This document shows positions 2,750-38,780 of a stretch of DNA of 64,000 nucleotides, in pieces (positions within the stretch are counted from its first letter, which is position 1; each line of letters opens with the position of its first letter). The position numbers and the translations under genes are program-made. The notes beneath the pieces were generated by a model. The model saw only the letters and a program-made list of their open reading frames with translations. It had not been told where the DNA came from and ran no database searches. This DNA comes from an uncultured Acidaminobacter sp. (GTDB lineage Bacteria; Bacillota; Clostridia; Peptostreptococcales; Acidaminobacteraceae): contig CAXXWB010000045.1 of assembly GCA_963677505.2 (NCBI GenBank), forward strand, positions 6,870 through 70,869. Reading direction: 5' to 3'.

Positions 2750-3571
2750 ATGCCAAATGGTAATATTTTGAGAACTTTTGATCAAAATTTGAAAAATAAG
2801 TTTAATGAGCGCTGTTTTATTTATGATAAATATAGACCTGAATATGTAGATGAGTTGTTTAAAGATATTTTTCAAATGAAAATGTTAAATCATAATAGTA
2901 AAGCATTAGAAATTGGAATAGGAACAGGACAAGCAACCAAACCTATTCTTGAAACGGGATGTAGTCTATTGGCGTTGGAAATTGGCGATCAGTTGGCGAG
3001 TTTTACTAAAGAGAAATTTCAGTCTTATGGTAACTTTACTGTTGAGAACAGTTCATTTGAAGATAGCAGCTTAGATGATAATAGCTATGATTTAGTATTT
3101 TCAGCATCTGCATTTCATTGGATTCCAGAAGAGTTTGGTTACTCTAAAGTTTTTAGAATTTTAAAACCCAATGGCGTGTTTGCCCGTTTTGCAATGCATC
3201 CTTATCCAGCAAAGGATAATATAGAGCTTTTTGAAGCAATACAACAATGTTATAAGAAATATTTACCAGAATCAAAACCAGGTCTTGAATATACAGAAGA
3301 AAAGGCTAGAGTAAGAGCAGAATTAAGCATTAAATATGGTTTTATTGACTCAAAATACTACGTTTACAATAGAATTAGGACTCATAATGCTCAAGAGTAT
3401 GTCAAGTTACTTGAAACTATGCACGACCATATAGCTTTGGATAGTAATTTGCGAGAAATGCTGTTTAATGACATTGAGGCTGCTATTGTAAAATATGGAA
3501 ATCAAATCAATGTCTATGATACAATTGACCTTCAGTTGGCTAGAAAAGCAAATATAGAAAATAATGATTAA
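2750..3571 (+). CDS. Class I SAM-dependent methyltransferase
   Basis: 273 aa. Motif I LEIGIGTGQAT; post-I and later motifs DLVFSASAFHWI and LKPNGVF. GGAGG RBS. Confidence 0.8.
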   Translation: MPNGNILRTFDQNLKNKFNERCFIYDKYRPEYVDELFKDIFQMKMLNHNSKALEIGIGTGQATKPILETGCSLLALEIGDQLASFTKEKFQSYGNFTVENSSFEDSSLDDNSYDLVFSASAFHWIPEEFGYSKVFRILKPNGVFARFAMHPYPAKDNIELFEAIQQCYKKYLPESKPGLEYTEEKARVRAELSIKYGFIDSKYYVYNRIRTHNAQEYVKLLETMHDHIALDSNLREMLFNDIEAAIVKYGNQINVYDTIDLQLARKANIENND

Positions 3572-6913: not shown

Positions 6914-7032
6914 GTATAACTCCGAACTTACGCCATTGCCTATTGTCACGTCTTTTGCGCATGCAAAAGCCCCGCCAACTTGTCGCTGAAGCGCCAAGCA
7001 CGGCAACGTCGTAAGTTCGTCTTTCGTTATAC
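6914..7032 (+). repeat. attC site 8 (119 nt)
   Basis: R'' gtataac, R' gttatac. Confidence 0.9.
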
Positions 7033-7074
7033 GAAAGACTTTCCCAAGAGGAATCATGATTGGAGGTACTTTTT

Positions 7075-8507: not shown

Positions 8508-8603
8508 GACATTCTTTGCTACATACATATTTTAACTTTATATGAATATATTTAGAATTCAAGGTCAAAAGAAAAAAGAAAATTATATTAGGGAGATAAT
8601 CAT

Positions 8604-14039: not shown

Positions 14040-14158
14040 GCTTAACTCCGAACTTACGCCATTGCCTATTGTCACGTCTTTTGCGCATGCAAAAGCCCCG
14101 CCAACTTGCCGCTGCGGCGTCAAGCACGGCAACGTCGTCAGTTCGTCTTTCGTTATGT
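14040..14158 (+). repeat. attC site 16 (119 nt)
   Basis: R'' gcttaac, R' gttatgt. Confidence 0.9.
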
Positions 14159-14277
14159 GACATTTTAGCAGCGACACATGGATTTGTCAAAAAAAGTGCA
14201 GTCGGTAAACTCACTAAATTGATAAAGGGGTATAACCCCATTGAATTACCTTGAGTTCATTTAGACCACTTTTCATT

Positions 14278-15150
14278 TTATGCTGCTGTACTACTTGCTA
14301 AACTTTTCATACGATAGACAAATGGCGGAAGCCCTTGTGGATTTGATGTATAGACCCGCTGTTTATTGTAATAAATCATAATGTAACGGAAGATCACTGA
14401 CTTGACCTGGTGCATCGGGAAATGCGCTGTTCCTATTCTGTAGAGTTTCTCTTTTTTCAGAGTGGCAAAGAAGCTCTCCATCCTTGCATTATCATAGCAT
14501 CGACCTGTGCCACTCATACTTTGTATGGCTCCATATTGAGCCAAGGTCTTTCGATAATCAGAGCTGGTAAACTGACTTCCTCGGTCTGAGTGAAGAATCA
14601 TGCCCTTGGCATTCTGTGACTTGCAAGCGTTTTCAAAGGCTTGAATACACAGTTCTTTACGCATGTTGTTGTCCATGGATAGACCAACAATCTCACCATT
14701 ATAGCAGTCAAGGATTGGTGCAACATAGAGTTTACCATCAGAACACTGCACTTCAGTGATGTCTGTTAGCCACTTCTGATTTGGTGCAGTTGCTGCAAAG
14801 TCCCTTTGGATGATATTTTCACTCTTTTGCGCTGCAGCGTCTTCACGAGTGATACCATTTGGGTGACGTTTACGCTTTTTAAGCATCTGATATTTGCGCA
14901 TAGTCCGATAAATGGTACTATAGCTCACCTGTTGGTCCAACTGAAGTAGCCTTAAATAAATGCGTCTAGCGCCGTAATTATCATTATCGGGATGTTGACT
15001 TAGAACCGACTTTATTTGACCCAGAAGAAGGCTGTCTCGTTTAATCTTGTCTGTATGTTTAAGGCTTCTAAAATAACCTGACTCACTGACTTTTAGCGCT
15101 ATACAAAGTTCGTGAATGGAGTATTTTAAGCACCTTTGACTGATAAACAT
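14278..15150 (-). CDS. IS3-family transposase OrfB (DDE integrase-like catalytic domain)
   Basis: 290 aa from the first ATG. Motifs ..NQKWLTDITEV.. and HSDRGSQFTS. Confidence 0.85.
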   Translation of the reverse strand: MFISQRCLKYSIHELCIALKVSESGYFRSLKHTDKIKRDSLLLGQIKSVLSQHPDNDNYGARRIYLRLLQLDQQVSYSTIYRTMRKYQMLKKRKRHPNGITREDAAAQKSENIIQRDFAATAPNQKWLTDITEVQCSDGKLYVAPILDCYNGEIVGLSMDNNMRKELCIQAFENACKSQNAKGMILHSDRGSQFTSSDYRKTLAQYGAIQSMSGTGRCYDNARMESFFATLKKEKLYRIGTAHFPMHQVKSVIFRYIMIYYNKQRVYTSNPQGLPPFVYRMKSLASSTAA

Positions 15151-15167
15151 GTATAAAAGCTGTGGTT

Positions 15168-15455
15168 TTACTTCTTCCGGTCTTTTGCGAAAAAACCCAA
15201 TGCATCCTTTAGAATTTCATTGGCCTTGCGAAGTTCAGCATTTTCCTTTTCAAGCTCCATCTCTCGACGGCTTCTAGGATCAATGCGTAGGTTACCACTG
15301 CCAACATAGGCGAGTTCGCCGTAATGGGTACGTTTTTGACGCCAATTGGACAAGGTATGATACGGAACACCAAGTTGTTTTGCAGCTGTAGCCAGTCCAA
15401 TTTCATCAGATAGTTTTACGGCTTCAATTTTAAATGCGGTATCATAAGTTTTCAT
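15168..15455 (-). CDS. IS3-family transposase OrfA (HTH)
   Basis: 95 aa. ..LGVPYHTLSNWRQK.. followed by a leucine-zipper-like ELEKENAELRKANEILKDA. Confidence 0.85.
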   Translation of the reverse strand: MKTYDTAFKIEAVKLSDEIGLATAAKQLGVPYHTLSNWRQKRTHYGELAYVGSGNLRIDPRSRREMELEKENAELRKANEILKDALGFFAKDRKK

Positions 15456-15717
15456 TTCGAGTCCTCACTTTCATAGATATGGTTATAGTCATCATATCGC
15501 ATTTAGTGAGTTTGGTGACTGCACTTTTATGATATCATTCCACATTGTTATTACTTTATTATGGCATCTAAATTTATACATAAAGGTAAGTTCTAATAAC
15601 TGGAATCGACATATTACTTTTATTAGTATGTAAGAACTGAAAAAATAGGAGTAATTATATTGAGTAATTCTGGCAACCACACAAACAATATTTAGTATAA
15701 AAACACGAGGATAAAAT

Positions 15718-17324: not shown

Positions 17325-17438
17325 GAAAGTCTTTATACTTGCATATCTCATTGTAATAAAGAGATATTGTTCAAGGATCAAATCCAATACCATTGAATTT
17401 AGCATTAATTATATTTATTGATTATATAGGGTGAAATT

Positions 17439-17678
17439 TTGAGAGCATTAAAAGTGATAATATTTGTCATATTCACCTTAGTCATAGTGCATTCTATAGA
17501 GTACTATTTCAAAATTAATCAAGTTGTAAGTGGTGTTTGGTTAATGACAATTCTATATTTTTACAGATTTACAAAATCACTGCAAGATGAATATGAATTA
17601 TCCAGAAAATTTGTTATTTTTTGTGAGTTCCTCTATAATCGTCACTTTAGGATATTTTTTATTAAGGCCTTTTGGTGA
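17439..17678 (+). CDS. Small hydrophobic protein (79 aa)
   Basis: TTG start after AGGGTGA; two predicted TM helices. Confidence 0.45.
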   Translation: MRALKVIIFVIFTLVIVHSIEYYFKINQVVSGVWLMTILYFYRFTKSLQDEYELSRKFVIFCEFLYNRHFRIFFIKAFW

Positions 17679-17751
17679 AATCATTATTTTTAGCCTGTAG
17701 AGGTACAATCAAATAATCAAGTATCTAAACCACTTGAGGAGGTTGAAGCTG

Positions 17752-18150
17752 ATGTTGCCATTTCAATGTTATGGATTATTAATACGTTCTATTATTCAAG
17801 CAATCTTATTAGTACTAGTTTTAGATGCAATGGGTGCAATTAGCGGTAATATGCTTACTTATTTTGTACTATCTGTGTTCTTGTTTGTTCTACGATTAAT
17901 AGTTACAAATTATGCCATGAAAAAAGATGTGCATGAATTCTTTGTAAATTCTAATTCGTATTCAAAAGAAAAACTAAGTACCGAAAATTTTTATAAAAAA
18001 TATGCATTATTAGATCCCGAAATGAAAGTATATCATAGAAAGAAAAACCCCTTATATTATATAGTGTCATATAATGAAAGCTTTGGAATTATTGCATCTA
18101 AGAACGAACATGATATAGAAATCAACTCAATTAGAAATTATTATTTATAG
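17752..18150 (+). CDS. Membrane protein (about 132 aa), function unknown
   Basis: ATG 17752 lies 9 nt after GAGGAGG. The ORF track starts at 17734 in the same frame. Confidence 0.6.
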   Translation: MLPFQCYGLLIRSIIQAILLVLVLDAMGAISGNMLTYFVLSVFLFVLRLIVTNYAMKKDVHEFFVNSNSYSKEKLSTENFYKKYALLDPEMKVYHRKKNPLYYIVSYNESFGIIASKNEHDIEINSIRNYYL

Positions 18151-18183
18151 AAAGTAGAAGTGGCTGTAAAAATAAAGCCCTTC

Positions 18184-18228
18184 GCTTAACTTCGAATTCA
18201 CGAAATTTGTAATAGAATTGTCCGCACT
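18184..18228 (+). repeat. Truncated attC (5' part only)
   Basis: gcttaacttcgaattcacg..attgtcc matches the R''/L'' half of the consensus (gcttaactccgaacttacg..attgtca). Its upstream flank aaagcccttcgcttaac is complementary to the start of this cassette (gttaagcgaaagtcttt). No L'/R' half follows. Confidence 0.6.
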
Positions 18229-18645
18229 GTTGAGGAAAAATTGATGAAAAACCCAAATTCTCAAAAACCAACATACATAATGTTTGATCCAATGAAGGAT
18301 AGCATAGAGGATATAAAACGTGTAACTGACTCTGGCATATACTTGATTTGTTTTCGTGACTTGATGAAGCTACCTATTCCATTACAAAAAATAGAGTACT
18401 CCAGTTTTGAAAACGATAATGTACTTTACATTGGGAAGTCTTCAAGAGGTTTTTATAAACGAGATTATAAGAATCATTATTGTGGGTCGGCACGTAACTC
18501 AACAGTTAGAAAAAGCTTAGGAACATTGAACGGACTTAGAAGAAAGTATTATTCAAATCAAAAATATCGATTTATTGAGTCAGATGAAGAAAAGTTGACA
18601 CTTTGGATGAAAGAAAACCTCTTAATTTTTTATTGTGTGAACAGA

Positions 18646-19368
18646 AAACCCCCGGTTCTACCGGGGGTTCCAAAGAGCTTTAGCTTTGCCCAAAAAGAAT
18701 ACCTCCTTTTGTTAGAATAATGGTGGTTCGCCAACCGCTATTTTCTAATAAAAGGAGGATCCGAAATTGGATAAGAACAGTTTAGCACACACAACTTGGA
18801 ATTGCAAATATCACGTAGTGTTTGCACCAAAGTATAGACGACAAGCGATTTATGGAAAAATTAAGACAGATGTAGGAAAAATACTGAGGAAACTGTGTGA
18901 ACAAAAGGGCGTAAAAATTCTAGAAGCGACGGCTTGTTCTGACCATGTTCATATGGTTATCGAAATACCGCCAAAGCATAGTGTTTCGAGTATTATGGGA
19001 GATCTAAAAGGAAAAAGTTCTTTGATGATATTTGATAAGCACGCAAACTTGAAATATAAGTACGGAAATCGTCATTTTTGGTGTAGAGGTTACTATGTAG
19101 ATACAGTAGGAAGAAATGAAAAAGCAATAAGAGAATATGTGAAAAATCAACTCCAAGAGGATATAGCTAATGATCAAATAAGTATCATGGAATATGTTGA
19201 CCCGTTTACGGGTGAGCAAGCAGCGAAAAAGGGCAAAAAATAAAAGCTGCTTTAGCAGCAGCCAGTAAACGCAAGCGTTTGGCGAACCAAATCAATGAGC
19301 CTTAAGGCTCACGCGGGCAACATGCCCTTATAGGGCGGAACAAACTACCCGCTAAGCGGGTAGTTTTG
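18646..19368 (+). mobile_element. IS200/IS605-family element (tnpA only); ends approximate
   Basis: Y1 transposase gene flanked by subterminal hairpins aaacccccggttctaccgggggtt (left) and aaactacccgctaagcgggtagtttt (right). Confidence 0.65.
18767..19243 (+). CDS. tnpA: IS200/IS605 family Y1 (HUH) transposase TnpA
   Basis: 158 aa. HUH motif SDHVHMVIE; catalytic-Tyr region FWCRGYYVDTVG. TTG start after AGGAGG. Confidence 0.9.
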   Translation: MDKNSLAHTTWNCKYHVVFAPKYRRQAIYGKIKTDVGKILRKLCEQKGVKILEATACSDHVHMVIEIPPKHSVSSIMGDLKGKSSLMIFDKHANLKYKYGNRHFWCRGYYVDTVGRNEKAIREYVKNQLQEDIANDQISIMEYVDPFTGEQAAKKGKK

Positions 19369-19502
19369 ATTTGATTACGAATGACTACGATTCTGAAGAA
19401 ATTAAGTACATCAGTAGATACTATCCACCACTAAATATAAAAATAATAATTCGTTTAGAAACGTAGAATTTAGGAAAGAGTTGAAAATGATGAGGAATAA
19501 TC

Positions 19503-19727
19503 ATGAATGACATGGATAAAGATATTTTTCTTATTGGTTTCATTGTGTCTATATCTATATATTATTTATTAAGACATTTTGTAAATAGGAAAACAGAACT
19601 GAATTTGCCTATTTTACCAGAACGATTTCATGAAGACCCACTTAAGACATTGGCACAAGCTCTACTAACTATGATAAGCATAGGTTTAGGTATGTTTATA
19701 ACTATCTCTGTCGCAAAAATTATATAA
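19503..19727 (+). CDS. Small membrane protein (74 aa, 2 TM)
   Basis: ORF followed by attC 19. Confidence 0.5.
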   Translation: MNDMDKDIFLIGFIVSISIYYLLRHFVNRKTELNLPILPERFHEDPLKTLAQALLTMISIGLGMFITISVAKII

Positions 19728-19776
19728 GGACAAAAAACGTAAAAAGTTGAAATACATAATCGAGAGACCAAACTTC

Positions 19777-19895
19777 GCTTAACTCCGAACTTACGCCATT
19801 GCCTATTGTCACGTCTTTTGCGCATGCAAAAGCCCCGCCAACTTGCCGCTGCGGCGTCAAGCACGGCAATGACGTAAGTTCGTCTTTCGTTATAC
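19777..19895 (+). repeat. attC site 19 (119 nt)
   Basis: R'' gcttaac, R' gttatac. Confidence 0.9.
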
Positions 19896-23213: not shown

Positions 23214-23236
23214 CACACACGGCTCTCAATTTACGA
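23214..23236 (+). repeat. Possible decayed attC 3' remnant upstream of TA copy 2
   Basis: cacacggctctcaatttacgac resembles caagcacggc..tctttcgttatacgac with an internal deletion. The window start (tctcattatgcgac) shows the same remnant before TA copy 1. Confidence 0.25.
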
Positions 23237-23299
23237 CAGTTTAAACCCTTTTCAATACCAACTGTCATCGGTTATAATAAATAGTAAGAGGTGATTTGT

Positions 23300-23473
23300 A
23301 TGACACTTGTAGAGAAATTTGTAAAAGAGTTTGAAGAATTATCAACTGACAGACAAGCGGAAGTAATAGATTTTATTGAGTTCCTCAAAGAGAAAGAGAA
23401 CAAAAGAATTGAAGGATTAATGGATCTAATTATTGATGAAAATAAGGAAGCTTTATTGGAGCTTGCCAAATGA
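23300..23473 (+). CDS. Antitoxin of Phd/Doc-type module, copy 2
   Basis: Translation identical to 77-250. Confidence 0.7.
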   Translation: MTLVEKFVKEFEELSTDRQAEVIDFIEFLKEKENKRIEGLMDLIIDENKEALLELAK

Positions 23474-23850
23474 AAAATCTAGATATCAAGCAAGTTGTAG
23501 TATTTCATGAGAAAATCATCGAAAAGACTGGTGGTAGCCACGGAGTCAAAAATTATGGCTTAGTAGAAAGCGCACTTCATAGAGGTGAGGCAAGTTTTTC
23601 AGGAGAGGATTTTTATCCAAGTTTAGAATCAAAAATATCTGCTATAACCCATAGCTTAATTAGTAATCATGGATTTGTTGACGGGAATAAAAGAATTGGT
23701 GTATCCGTAATGCTGATGCTTTTGAAAATCAATTCACTTGAAATTCAATACAGCCAAATAGAATTGGTCAATTTAGGATTATCAGTGGCTTCAGGCGAAA
23801 TGGATGAAAAGCAAATTGAATCATGGATAAATGCAAGAAAAGTAAAGTAA
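23470..23850 (+). CDS. doc: Fic/Doc family toxin, copy 2
   Basis: 126 aa with HGFVDGNKRIG. It has 4 aa differences from copy 1, all in the C-terminal third. Confidence 0.85.
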   Translation: MKNLDIKQVVVFHEKIIEKTGGSHGVKNYGLVESALHRGEASFSGEDFYPSLESKISAITHSLISNHGFVDGNKRIGVSVMLMLLKINSLEIQYSQIELVNLGLSVASGEMDEKQIESWINARKVK

Positions 23851-23924: not shown

Positions 23925-24043
23925 GTATAACTCCGAACTTACGCCATTGCCTATTGTCACGTCTTTTGCGCATGCAAAAGCCCCGCCAACTTGCCGCTGG
24001 GGCGTCAAGCACGGCAACGACGTAAGTTCGTCTTTCGTTATAC
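23925..24043 (+). repeat. attC site 23 (119 nt)
   Basis: R'' gtataac, R' gttatac. Confidence 0.9.
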
Positions 24044-24162
24044 GAAAGTTCCCAGATTGTGATTGGAATAGTCAAGAAAAGTGCAGTCTATAAACTCACT
24101 AAATTAATCAAGGTGGATAATCCTATTGAAATTGCTTGAGTTTATTTAATCGACAACAATAG

Positions 24163-25020
24163 TTATGCAGCTTGGGTCGTTACTAAACTTTTCATACGAT
24201 AGGCGTACGGTGACAAACCTTGTGGGTTTGATGTATAGATTCGCTGTTTGTTGTAATAAATCATGATGTAGCGAAAAATTACTGACTTGATCTGGTGCAT
24301 TGGGAAATGTTCTGTTCCTATTCGGTAGAGTTTCTCTTTTTTCAAAGTAGCAAAGAAGCTCTCCATCCTTGCATTATCATAGCATCTACCAGTGCCACTC
24401 ATACTTTGTGTGGCACCATACTGAGCCAAAGCATTTCGAAAGTCATAACTTGTATACTGACTTCCTCGATCTGAATGGAGAATCATAGCTTTTGCTCCTT
24501 GAGATTTGCATGCGTTCTCAAAGGCTTGAATACACAGTTCTTTACGCATGTTGTTATCCATTGATAGACCTACAATCTCGCCATTGAAACAGTCGAGAAT
24601 TGGTGCTATATAAAGTTTGCCATCGGAACACTGTACCTCAGTGATATCGGTCAACCACTTCTGATTCGGCGCTGTTGCCGTAAAGTCTCGCTGGATTATA
24701 TTTTCGCTCTTCTGTGCTGCAGCATCTTCACGGGTAATGCCATTAGGATGACGTTTCCGTTTTTAAGCATCTGATGTTTCTTCATGATTCGGTAAACTGT
24801 ACTGTAGCTTACGTTCTGATCCATCTGTAAAAGTCCTAAATGAACCCGCTGAACGCCATAGTTATCGTTGTCAGGATATTGACTTAGAATAGCTTTGATA
24901 TGACCCAGAAGAAGGTCTTCACGTTTAAGTCGGTCTGTACTAAAATAACCTGACTCGCTGACCCTAAGAGCTATACAAAGGTCATGAATGCTGTATTTTG
25001 AACGCCTTAGACTGATGAAA
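24163..25020 (-). pseudogene. IS3-family transposase OrfB, frameshifted
   Basis: The C-terminal 163 aa are intact. A 1-nt loss in the A-run (atgcttaaaaacgg vs atgcttaaaaagcg in copy 1) breaks the frame, and a 12-13-nt deletion lies near 24940. Confidence 0.75.
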
Positions 25021-25039
25021 ACGTATAAACGCTGGGGTT

Positions 25040-25327
25040 TTACTTCTTCCGGTCTTTTGCGAAAAAACCTAATGCATCCTTTAGAATTTCATTGGCCTTG
25101 CGGAGCTCAGCATTTTCTTTTTCAAGTTCAAGTTCGCGACGACTTCTAGGGTCTATACGCAAGTTTCCACTGCCAACATAGGCGAGCTCGCCGTAATGGG
25201 TACGTTTTTGGCGCCAGTTGGACAAGGTGTGATAGGGAACACCAAGTTGCTTTGCAGCTGTAGCAAGTCCAATTTCATCAGAAAGTTTGACTGCTTCAAT
25301 TTTAAAGGCGGTATCATAAGTTTTCAT
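25040..25327 (-). CDS. IS3-family transposase OrfA
   Basis: 95 aa, 1 aa different from copy 1. Confidence 0.85.
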   Translation of the reverse strand: MKTYDTAFKIEAVKLSDEIGLATAAKQLGVPYHTLSNWRQKRTHYGELAYVGSGNLRIDPRSRRELELEKENAELRKANEILKDALGFFAKDRKK

Positions 25328-25529
25328 GTCGAATCCTCACTTTCATACATATGGGTTATATTTATCATATCTTATTTAGTGAGTTTTGCGACTGCACTTT
25401 TATGATAGCATTCCAACTTTGGACTGTATATTTACTTTTAAAGATTAGAAGAAGATCAAATTCTATGAGCCATTATGAATGTGATTAATAATACATAAAT
25501 CATGCCTAGATTAAGAAAGTAGGACTAAT

Positions 25530-26106: not shown

Positions 26107-26231
26107 GTATAACTCCGAACTTACGCCATTGCCTATTGTCACGCCTTTTGCGGAGAACCGTGCAAAAGCCCCGCCAACTTGCCGCTGAAGCGTCAAGCAC
26201 GGCAACGTGGTCAGTTCGTCTTTCGTTATGC
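26107..26231 (+). repeat. attC site 24 (125-nt class), last site of the array
   Basis: R'' gtataac, R' gttatgc. No further copies of the repeat occur downstream. Confidence 0.9.
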
Positions 26232-38683: not shown

Positions 38684-38780
38684 TGGCGGGAGTACGTGGG
38701 AATCGAACCCACCTAAGAGGCTCTTAACCCCTCAAACTGGTTTTGAAGACCAGAGGACACACCAGCACCCATCTACCCCC
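38684..38780 (-). tRNA. selC: tRNA-Sec (anticodon UCA)
   Basis: 97 nt on the minus strand: GGGGGTAG..CTGGT-CTTCAAA-ACCAG..GTGGGTTCGATTCCCAC-GTACTCCC-G-CCA. 7-nt anticodon loop with UCA; about 22-nt variable arm; extended acceptor stem; possible 6-bp D-stem with 4-nt loop; encoded CCA. Confidence 0.85.

Follow-up and report, generated by a model that had tools for sequence, protein, structure and literature searches.

The DNA considered here is a stretch of 64,000 nt, hereafter called the window, from an uncultured Acidaminobacter sp. (assembly GCA_963677505.2, contig CAXXWB010000045.1). Positions 1 to ~26231 are occupied by a cassette array, which has its terminus at 26231 and which already includes the first base of the window; positions 26243-64000 constitute the chromosomal part. 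The array contains 24 co-oriented copies of a GC-rich imperfect palindrome of ~120 nt each, which resembles the attC sites at which integron cassettes recombine, and between these repeats lie AT-rich cassettes of 476-1271 nt with open reading frames (ORFs) on the plus strand. In two of the cassettes, a copy of an insertion sequence (IS) of the IS3 family begins exactly 20 nt after the repeat. As discussed below, these copies and their relatives in public assemblies probably represent independent insertions of an element that uses one end of the repeat as a landmark.

Two IS3-family copies in a cassette array

The features around both insertions are listed in Table 1. The inverted core heptamers at the start and at the end of each repeat are designated R'' and R', respectively, and the terminal inverted repeats of the IS are designated IRL (left) and IRR (right). 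Outside the array, the GC content of the window is ~38%, and the DNA beyond 26231 is homologous to a contig from a groundwater metagenome (L006).

Table 1. Positions in the window of the two IS copies and of the repeats and spacers next to them.
Feature	Positions	Strand	Remarks
attC-like repeat "attC 16"	14040-14158	+	R'' 7-mer GCTTAAC, 14040-14046; R' 7-mer GTTATGT, 14152-14158; member of the 24-copy family
20-nt spacer, R' to copy 1	14159-14178	+	GACATTTTAGCAGCGACACA; the first 5 nt, GACAT, are the conserved block after R'
IS3-family copy 1	14179-15542	-	1364 bp; TGGA...TCCA; IRR, 14179-14219, beside the repeat; IRL, 15502-15542
orfB, copy 1	14278-15150	-	290 aa; integrase-core (DDE) part of the transposase
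orfA, copy 1	15168-15455	-	95 aa; HTH_Tnp_1
attC-like repeat "attC 23"	23925-24043	+	R'' GTATAAC, 23925-23931; R' GTTATAC, 24037-24043
20-nt spacer, R' to copy 2	24044-24063	+	GAAAGTTCCCAGATTGTGAT
IS3-family copy 2, decayed	24064-25415	-	1352 bp; IRR beside the repeat
orfB, copy 2	24163-24654 and 24696-24824		split
orfA, copy 2	25040-25327		intact

The element is an ordinary member of the IS3 family. OrfB of copy 1 scores 263.3 bits against the NCBIfam model NF033516 (transpos_IS3), which has a cutoff of 160, and homologues carry the domains HTH_21, rve and rve_3 in OrfB and HTH_Tnp_1 in OrfA. The orfB gene is in the -1 frame relative to orfA, which ends in GGT TTT TTC and thus contains a slippery heptamer, T_TTT_TTC (minus strand, 15189-15195). 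All copies have terminal inverted repeats of ~41 nt and ends of the 5'-TG...CA-3' type, with TGGA...TCCA as the termini; in copy 1, the core of these repeats, AAAGTGCAGTC, is found at 14193 (+) and 15527 (-). The family assignment further agrees with the 3-bp target duplications of related copies described below. The non-coding ends of the element measure only ~87 and 99 nt. The closest public proteins are 90-92% identical and come from metagenome contigs, while named relatives, in Paenibacillus, Cohnella and other Firmicutes, are 63-72% identical. In the plasmid set, the best annotated match after Paenibacillus (67%) is IS600, at 37%.

An earlier note, made from the window alone, had called attention to the equal distance of the two copies from their repeats, and this distance is confirmed: read from the sequence, the R' 7-mers end at 14158 and 24043 and the elements start at 14179 and 24064, and refined mapping of the ends left both offsets at 20 nt. 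The copies are diverged, as the note had also stated. They share 82-83% identity, the differences include a 12-nt deletion and two 1-nt indels, and orfB is intact in copy 1 but broken in copy 2. Two other details have to be corrected. The end next to the repeat is not the IRL-proximal one but IRR, the orfB-distal end, since the transposase genes lie on the minus strand. Nor is the element inserted just past the base of the extended stem: the conserved stem stops at approximately +1 after the R' 7-mer, so the IS lies ~19 nt beyond it.

The two copies in the window could in principle descend from one older insertion whose repeat and IS were duplicated as a unit, or their equal offsets could be coincidental. 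Cassette duplications do exist in this array: positions 1-300 and 23224-23523, and positions 758-1385 and 1690-2316, are 99-100% identical, and a Fic-domain cassette occurs twice among the duplicated cassettes. However, the homology between the two IS regions breaks off exactly at TGGA on the left and at TCCA on the right. The repeats and the IS elements align between both loci, in contrast to the 20-nt spacers and distal flanks, for which no alignment is obtained. As to coincidence, two independent insertions into cassettes of ~986 nt would share offset and orientation with a chance of ~5e-4. With nine further independent copies located 14-22 nt from a repeat in other cassettes (see below), both variants of this explanation are refuted by the related loci and can be considered extremely improbable. 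The conclusion of the earlier note that the copies are independent insertions rather than parts of a duplicated segment thus stands.

Positions of related copies

Further copies were sought in contigs of public assemblies that encode the same or a near-identical OrfA or OrfB. The ends of the elements were placed by BLAST against copy 1, after which the distance to the nearest R' was measured, and contigs with the same junction were merged. Fifteen informative, distinct members of the clade resulted, with pairwise identities of 82-100%. Thirteen of them lie outside the window, in contigs from several unrelated studies; the sources include groundwater, ENA assemblies and SRA projects (several of each) and a JGI metagenome. 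Since the +20 position had been derived from the window itself, the test was restricted to these 13.

Eight of the 15 copies (6 of the 13 outside the window) are located exactly 20 nt after R'. Four of these have IRR facing the repeat (the window copies w1 and w2, L010 and L018) and four have IRL facing it (L009, L012, L013 and L017). Three more copies are found at 19 nt (L029, IRR facing the repeat), 22 nt (L006, IRR) and 14 nt (L027, IRL) after R'. Under uniform insertion along a cassette of ~986 nt, finding 6 out of 13 copies at +20 has a probability of ~2e-15, and even if insertion were limited to a leader of 100 nt, the probability is ~2e-9. All 11 copies located 14-22 nt past R' lie in different cassettes with different spacers and, therefore, represent separate events. 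The suggestion in the earlier note that the repeat or its flank serves as a target landmark is supported by these counts.

All 11 of these insertions are on the R' side of the repeat, and the mirror position beside R'' is occupied in no case. Their orientation is free, with IRR adjacent to the repeat in six cases and IRL in five. Hence, the same orientation of the two copies in the window, which the earlier note had pointed out, is real but coincidental, and not a rule.

The preference appears to be both old and current. Three copies (L009, L012 and L013) are 100% identical over ~1363 nt, yet each occupies a +20 site of its own, and target duplications are intact at two of these sites, which indicates that targeting is recent and active. 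At the same time, the +20 position is kept by IS lineages that are just 82-83% identical (w2 and L018) and, in L009, on a variant of the repeat that is ~70% identical overall with conservation of the last ~25 nt, i.e., the R' end. Thus, the preference is clade-wide as well as old, and it is still operating.

Other searches added little. A pattern scan of genome contigs yielded only a truncated copy in a metagenome-assembled genome (MAG) of the Peptostreptococcaceae (L004, contig CAYOLV010000002.1), which also carries the same repeat family, and distant relatives in Clostridia; two metagenome scans and one viral scan produced no new copies. BLAST searches of all distal flanks against all collected DNA revealed no unoccupied homologue of any site, and the cassette proteins beside both window copies are singletons in the protein collection. 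In more distant relatives (L001, L002, L003 and L005, on MAG contigs of Clostridia and Ruminococcus), the similarity to the present element is confined to the inverted-repeat core. They adjoin, or sit 17-50 nt from, hairpin repeats of the form CCTTCCCC-NNN-GGGGAAGG, which occur in both orientations and at distances that are not constant. This hints that an association with hairpin repeats may be wider in this IS lineage.

Target duplications

Perfect 3-bp duplications flank the TGGA...TCCA termini in three related copies: GAT in L009, ATA in L012 and ATG, which is CAT in the orientation of the cassette, in L018. In each of them, the duplicated triplet corresponds to positions +18 to +20 of the spacer, whichever way the IS is oriented. 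Since the triplet has the same position in both orientations, the staggered cuts must be constant, falling 17 and 20 nt past the end of the R' 7-mer, or 23 and 26 nt after the G/TT crossover point of R'. The earlier note had recognized no target duplications. This remains true for the window copies, where copy 1 has a 2-bp match (CA) at most and copy 2 has none (GAT vs. ACT), but it does not hold for the related ones. The last 2-3 nt (ACA/CA) of the spacer of copy 1 are probably a target duplication. Four nt beyond IRL of copy 2, at 25420-25427, the sequence TGGACTGT matches the initial 8 nt of IRL in the related copies without any difference, but is directed outward with respect to copy 2. 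Possibly, it is a leftover of a second IS end, which might account for the absence of a target duplication from copy 2, or it could be a chance match.

The duplications also bear on the mechanism of acquisition. Capture of an IS circle by the integron integrase IntI was considered but discarded, as the junction does not coincide with the G/TT crossover and 3-bp duplications are present.

The attC-like repeats

Inverted cores of the type nnnTAAC...GTTAnnn are present in all 24 repeats of the window and in 17 copies in another contig (L023). To the attC consensus sequences for R'' (RYYYAAC) and R' (GTTRRRY), the 7-mers conform only loosely, e.g., GTTATGT and GTTAGCT. The attC 16 repeat folds into a long imperfect hairpin with a z-score of -4.4, and the scores of the repeats span -4.4 to -8.7. 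Of the 35 base pairs predicted, nine show compensatory changes, an example being CGAACTTAC/GTAAGTTCG, which is replaced by CGAATTCAC/GTGAATTCG in L009. Unlike in textbook attC sites, whose extrahelical bases in the L stem mark the recombinogenic strand, the predicted folds show neither such bases nor one-sided bulges. Their asymmetry resides instead in the unpaired spacer between the R and L boxes, which is 2 nt on one side and 6 nt on the other and also differs from the textbook arrangement. No integrase was seen in L004, and a scan of viral contigs for attC cores was empty as well. Considering the inverted TAAC/GTTA cores, the conserved fold, the strong folding scores and the co-oriented array, the repeats are regarded as putative integron attC sites and designated attC-like. 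The targeting result holds whichever label they carry.

At every R' end, the core is also the center of a short local palindrome, CTTTC-GTTAnnn-GAAAG (14147-14163 and 24032-24048 at the occupied sites; another example is at 7021-7040). It can reach up to GTCTTTCG-TTATA-CGAAAGAC, and in attC 23 a perfect palindrome, CTTTCGTTATACGAAAG, surrounds R'. In single-strand folds, this local hairpin competes with the pairing of R'' and R'. The local palindrome looks like a simple, double-stranded core site for a recombinase.

What marks the insertion site

The first five cassette bases after the 7-mer are conserved (G, A/C, A/C, A, T/G). Together with the preceding TCTTTC, they make up the palindrome described above, which is present on the R' side only. 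The center of this palindrome is ~22 bp from the center of the duplicated triplet, i.e., two helical turns. The location of all 11 insertions on the R' side argues against recognition of a symmetric hairpin or cruciform alone and in favor of reading of the asymmetric R' end.

Alternatively, there may be no landmark at all. A weak local preference for A/T-rich, ACA- or GAT-like triplets, combined with loosely conserved leaders and with selection that clears insertions elsewhere, could place the elements near the repeats. The leaders are indeed not random: besides the conservation of +1 to +5, otherwise unrelated cassettes share ATACATATTTT around +14 to +25, and the target triplets are mostly of the type (G/A/C)A(T/A). 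However, spacer positions +8 to +20 show little conservation overall, and position-by-position comparison of 8 occupied with 36 empty sites in search of a local target motif yielded only a T at +7 (uncorrected p 0.014), which was not significant after correction for multiple testing; a local motif, therefore, cannot explain the position. Moreover, A/T-rich triplets are everywhere at a GC content of 30-38%, and selection does not produce a nucleotide-exact recurrence in eight cassettes in dispensable DNA (2e-9 for the 100-nt leader, as given above). We consider this explanation improbable.

The leader motifs deserve mention in their own right. They occur at a fixed distance after R' in cassettes that are otherwise unrelated, including those at 2690-2715 and 8508-8533 of the window, 1159-1184 of L023 and 1099-1124 of L004. 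Two classes can be distinguished, one with ATACATATTTT at approximately +14 to +25, and the other with GCAATAATTCTG...AATTGGTA.

Another candidate concerned the element itself. A small conserved hairpin at 14226-14238 (GGGGTTATACCCC in the sense of the minus strand), ~45 nt inside IRR, has a loop, GTTATAC, that resembles the R' 7-mer. The idea that this hairpin, GGGG-TTATA-CCCC, mimics R' was dropped, because the loop varies among the copies (TCATA, ATATA, GTATCA); the stem is kept in most of them. More probably, the hairpin resembles a terminator in function and is no mimic.

Probable independent insertions of an element with target specificity

Taken together, we consider it fairly probable that the window copies and their relatives are independent insertions of a target-specific IS3-family element, for which the R' end of the attC-like repeats serves as the landmark. 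Several observations weigh against this interpretation. The offset is not absolute, as distances of 14, 19 and 22 nt are also seen. One copy (L015) lies 6 nt outside the R'' side, with IRL facing the repeat, and three (L008, L011 and L025/26) have no attC-like repeat nearby. A target duplication is kept in only 3 of the 8 repeat-adjacent copies with both flanks readable. Most of the related contigs are short metagenome contigs, so that the collection is no whole-genome census. Furthermore, OrfA and OrfB have the ordinary domain set of the IS3 family, without an extra domain, and the possibility that the end of attC is targeted because it looks like the IS ends, as in the targeting by IS911 and IS30, found no support: in local alignments of IRL and IRR with attC, the fraction of 1000 shuffles that scored at least as well was 0.99 and 0.41, respectively. 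Random placement of other copies, which the earlier note had named as evidence against targeting, is not the pattern found: 9 of the 13 outside copies are located 14-22 nt past R', while L015 and the three copies without a repeat depart from this position.

Later rearrangements may account for these exceptions. Recombination between IS copies causes deletions when they are in the same orientation and inversions when they are in inverse orientation, and adjacent deletions occur as well; all of these events erase target duplications, and an inversion also yields copies with two distal flanks. In the array of Vibrio cholerae, experiments have demonstrated that recombination between IS3-family copies can invert the array (PMC11023631). 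Target duplications are missing from all three copies without a nearby repeat, as would be expected after secondary rearrangement more than after primary insertion. In L022, a more distant relative (~75% identical), a duplication, TTT, is present at a site without such a repeat.

The distal end of the array provides a further example of rearrangement. In L004, it carries a truncated attC-like repeat of which only the R''/L'' third is left (3024-3086), and in L006 it carries an IS with a degenerate IRL tip (2900-2930). This difference indicates an IS-associated rearrangement at the end of the array. L004 was examined as a possible empty site for L006, but it proved to have undergone another rearrangement, in which attC is truncated.

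A second question is which protein reads the landmark. Targeting could be real but mediated by a protein of the host or the integron, such as IntI or a nucleoid protein that occupies the R' box, or by a folded or cruciform attC at the replication fork, with the transposase preferring distorted DNA approximately two turns away. The lack of an extra domain in the IS proteins and the dissimilarity of the IS ends to attC fit such a scenario, as does the use of both orientations, which would be expected for a target that is merely positioned and not directionally read. In addition, the repeat has a strong and conserved fold, and the R' end is the part that is conserved across attC variants, as a recombinase-binding site would be. 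In contrast, a symmetric cruciform would give insertions on both sides, whereas all 11 are on the R' side, and an integrase gene was found neither in L004 nor by the scan of viral contigs for attC cores. Also, the more distant relatives L022 and L028 (~75% identical) show no association with such repeats, which suggests a trait of the IS clade, although their hosts may simply have no repeats. On balance, mediation by a host factor or by DNA structure seems unlikely. We favor the element's own OrfA or OrfAB as the reader of the landmark, in analogy to IS1397 and ISKpn1, which are discussed below.

If the element reads the landmark itself, the following course of events can be envisaged. From the established biology of the IS3 family, transposition would follow the ordinary copy-out/paste-in route, in which -1 frameshifting produces the OrfAB DDE transposase and a circular IS with abutted ends integrates. 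The helix-turn-helix (HTH)-leucine-zipper part of OrfA or OrfAB might contact the landmark, presumably the conserved R' end TCGTCTTTC-GTTAnnn-GAMAK with its short R'-side-only palindrome centered ~22 bp from the insertion, through either its sequence or its structure, and thereby position the catalytic sites. Staggered cuts at 17 and 20 nt after the 7-mer would then duplicate +18 to +20, as observed in the related copies, and the IS would enter in either orientation, as also observed. Such an insertion would leave the upstream attC and the G/TT crossover intact, with the IS located 26 nt inside the next cassette, as is found at the occupied sites. Sparing of the crossover and insertion within the next cassette imply that dispensable DNA is hit and that the element could travel with the cassette. 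Copies without a duplication or away from attC would arise later, by IS-IS recombination or adjacent deletions.

More tentatively, the element may be seen as an example of targeting by a molecular ruler, in which an IS3 clade reads a recombinase-binding end and inserts two turns downstream of it. The site would stay functional, the IS would lead the next cassette, and the cassette integrase could move it between genomes, which would make the element a dedicated parasite or passenger of a cassette-array system in Firmicutes. We regard this extended proposal as possible but doubtful.

Other features of the window

A second, unrelated IS (18647-19243) is present in a long cassette (17325-19895) without an adjacent attC-like repeat. 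It contains an ORF for an IS200-type Y1 transposase (18767-19243, 158 aa), preceded by a match to the Rfam family STnc490 (18647-18755, 63 bits). In the chromosomal part, a tRNA-Sec gene is located on the minus strand at 38684-38780 (Rfam, 70 bits; anticodon TCA according to ARAGORN). Proteins encoded in the chromosomal part share 90%-identity clusters with those of a contig from a Peptostreptococcaceae MAG; the GC content of ~38% and the tRNA-Sec gene likewise accord with a host of the Peptostreptococcaceae type.

Comparison with known site-specific elements

Tn7 is directed to attTn7 by TnsD and inserts at a fixed distance from the recognized sequence, leaving the recognized site undamaged. 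The present IS resembles it in that a conserved sequence is recognized and insertion takes place a fixed distance away. However, Tn7 has a dedicated target-selector protein and uses one orientation, whereas the IS has only orfA and orfB and uses both.

The elements of the IS1111-attC group (ISPa21, ISPst6 and ISKpn4, of the IS110/IS1111 family) likewise occupy a reproducible position at cassette recombination sites (PMC11187229; PMC3001079). They encode DEDD enzymes guided by a seekRNA (PMC11187229), which is specified by a long non-coding region; the present IS has a DDE OrfAB and no such region. For both the IS1111-attC elements and the group IIC-attC introns, the insertion point is close to the 5' end of attC, and the only orientation is antisense (PMC3001079). 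Whereas the former are found inside attC and in a single orientation, the present IS occurs in either orientation at 14-22 nt beyond R', with a 3-bp duplication, and leaves attC intact. The group IIC-attC introns are also mobile elements that home to attC in cassette arrays (PMC3001079). They differ from the present IS in being retroelements that target the bottom strand of attC in a single orientation, without a DDE transposase and without target duplication.

Within the IS3 family, IS1397, ISKpn1 and ISPsy8 target palindromic repeats, and their specificity is reportedly set by the transposase (PMC1525189). These elements, which target repetitive extragenic palindromes (REP) or palindromic units (PU), share with the present IS the family, the combination of OrfA (HTH) and OrfB (DDE) and a repeated palindromic target. 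They insert within the palindromic unit, unlike the present IS, which inserts at a measured distance outside it, ~19 nt beyond the base of the stem, and on one side only. Moreover, its transposase is not a close relative of the REP/PU-targeting IS3 transposases. In the V. cholerae array, the IS3-family copies interrupt coding sequences, and no targeting was described for them (PMC11023631). Full-text searches of the literature, which did not cover ISfinder, revealed no account of an association between attC flanks and an IS3-family element. The targeting behavior represents, therefore, a new form of site-specific IS targeting, as the known attC-targeting elements hit inside attC and in one orientation, while the element itself is a normal member of the IS3 family.

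Significance

Site-specific DDE transposons are rare and useful. Measurement of a fixed distance with the two standard IS3 proteins would constitute a compact system for target choice by enzymes that resemble retroviral integrases, and it might offer a starting point for directed insertion.

A large attC-like array in what appears to be a Peptostreptococcaceae-like member of the Firmicutes is unusual in itself, as integrons are almost unknown in this phylum; in all Firmicutes, one complete integron and a few clusters of attC sites lacking an integron integrase (CALINs) have been reported (PMC9024848). For the biology of integrons, the present IS would bring to three the classes of mobile elements with cassette arrays as their target. 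It differs in mechanism from the two classes known so far and, in contrast to them, leaves the recombination site unharmed. Thus, the element may ride inside cassettes and provide the homology for inversions and deletions in the array.

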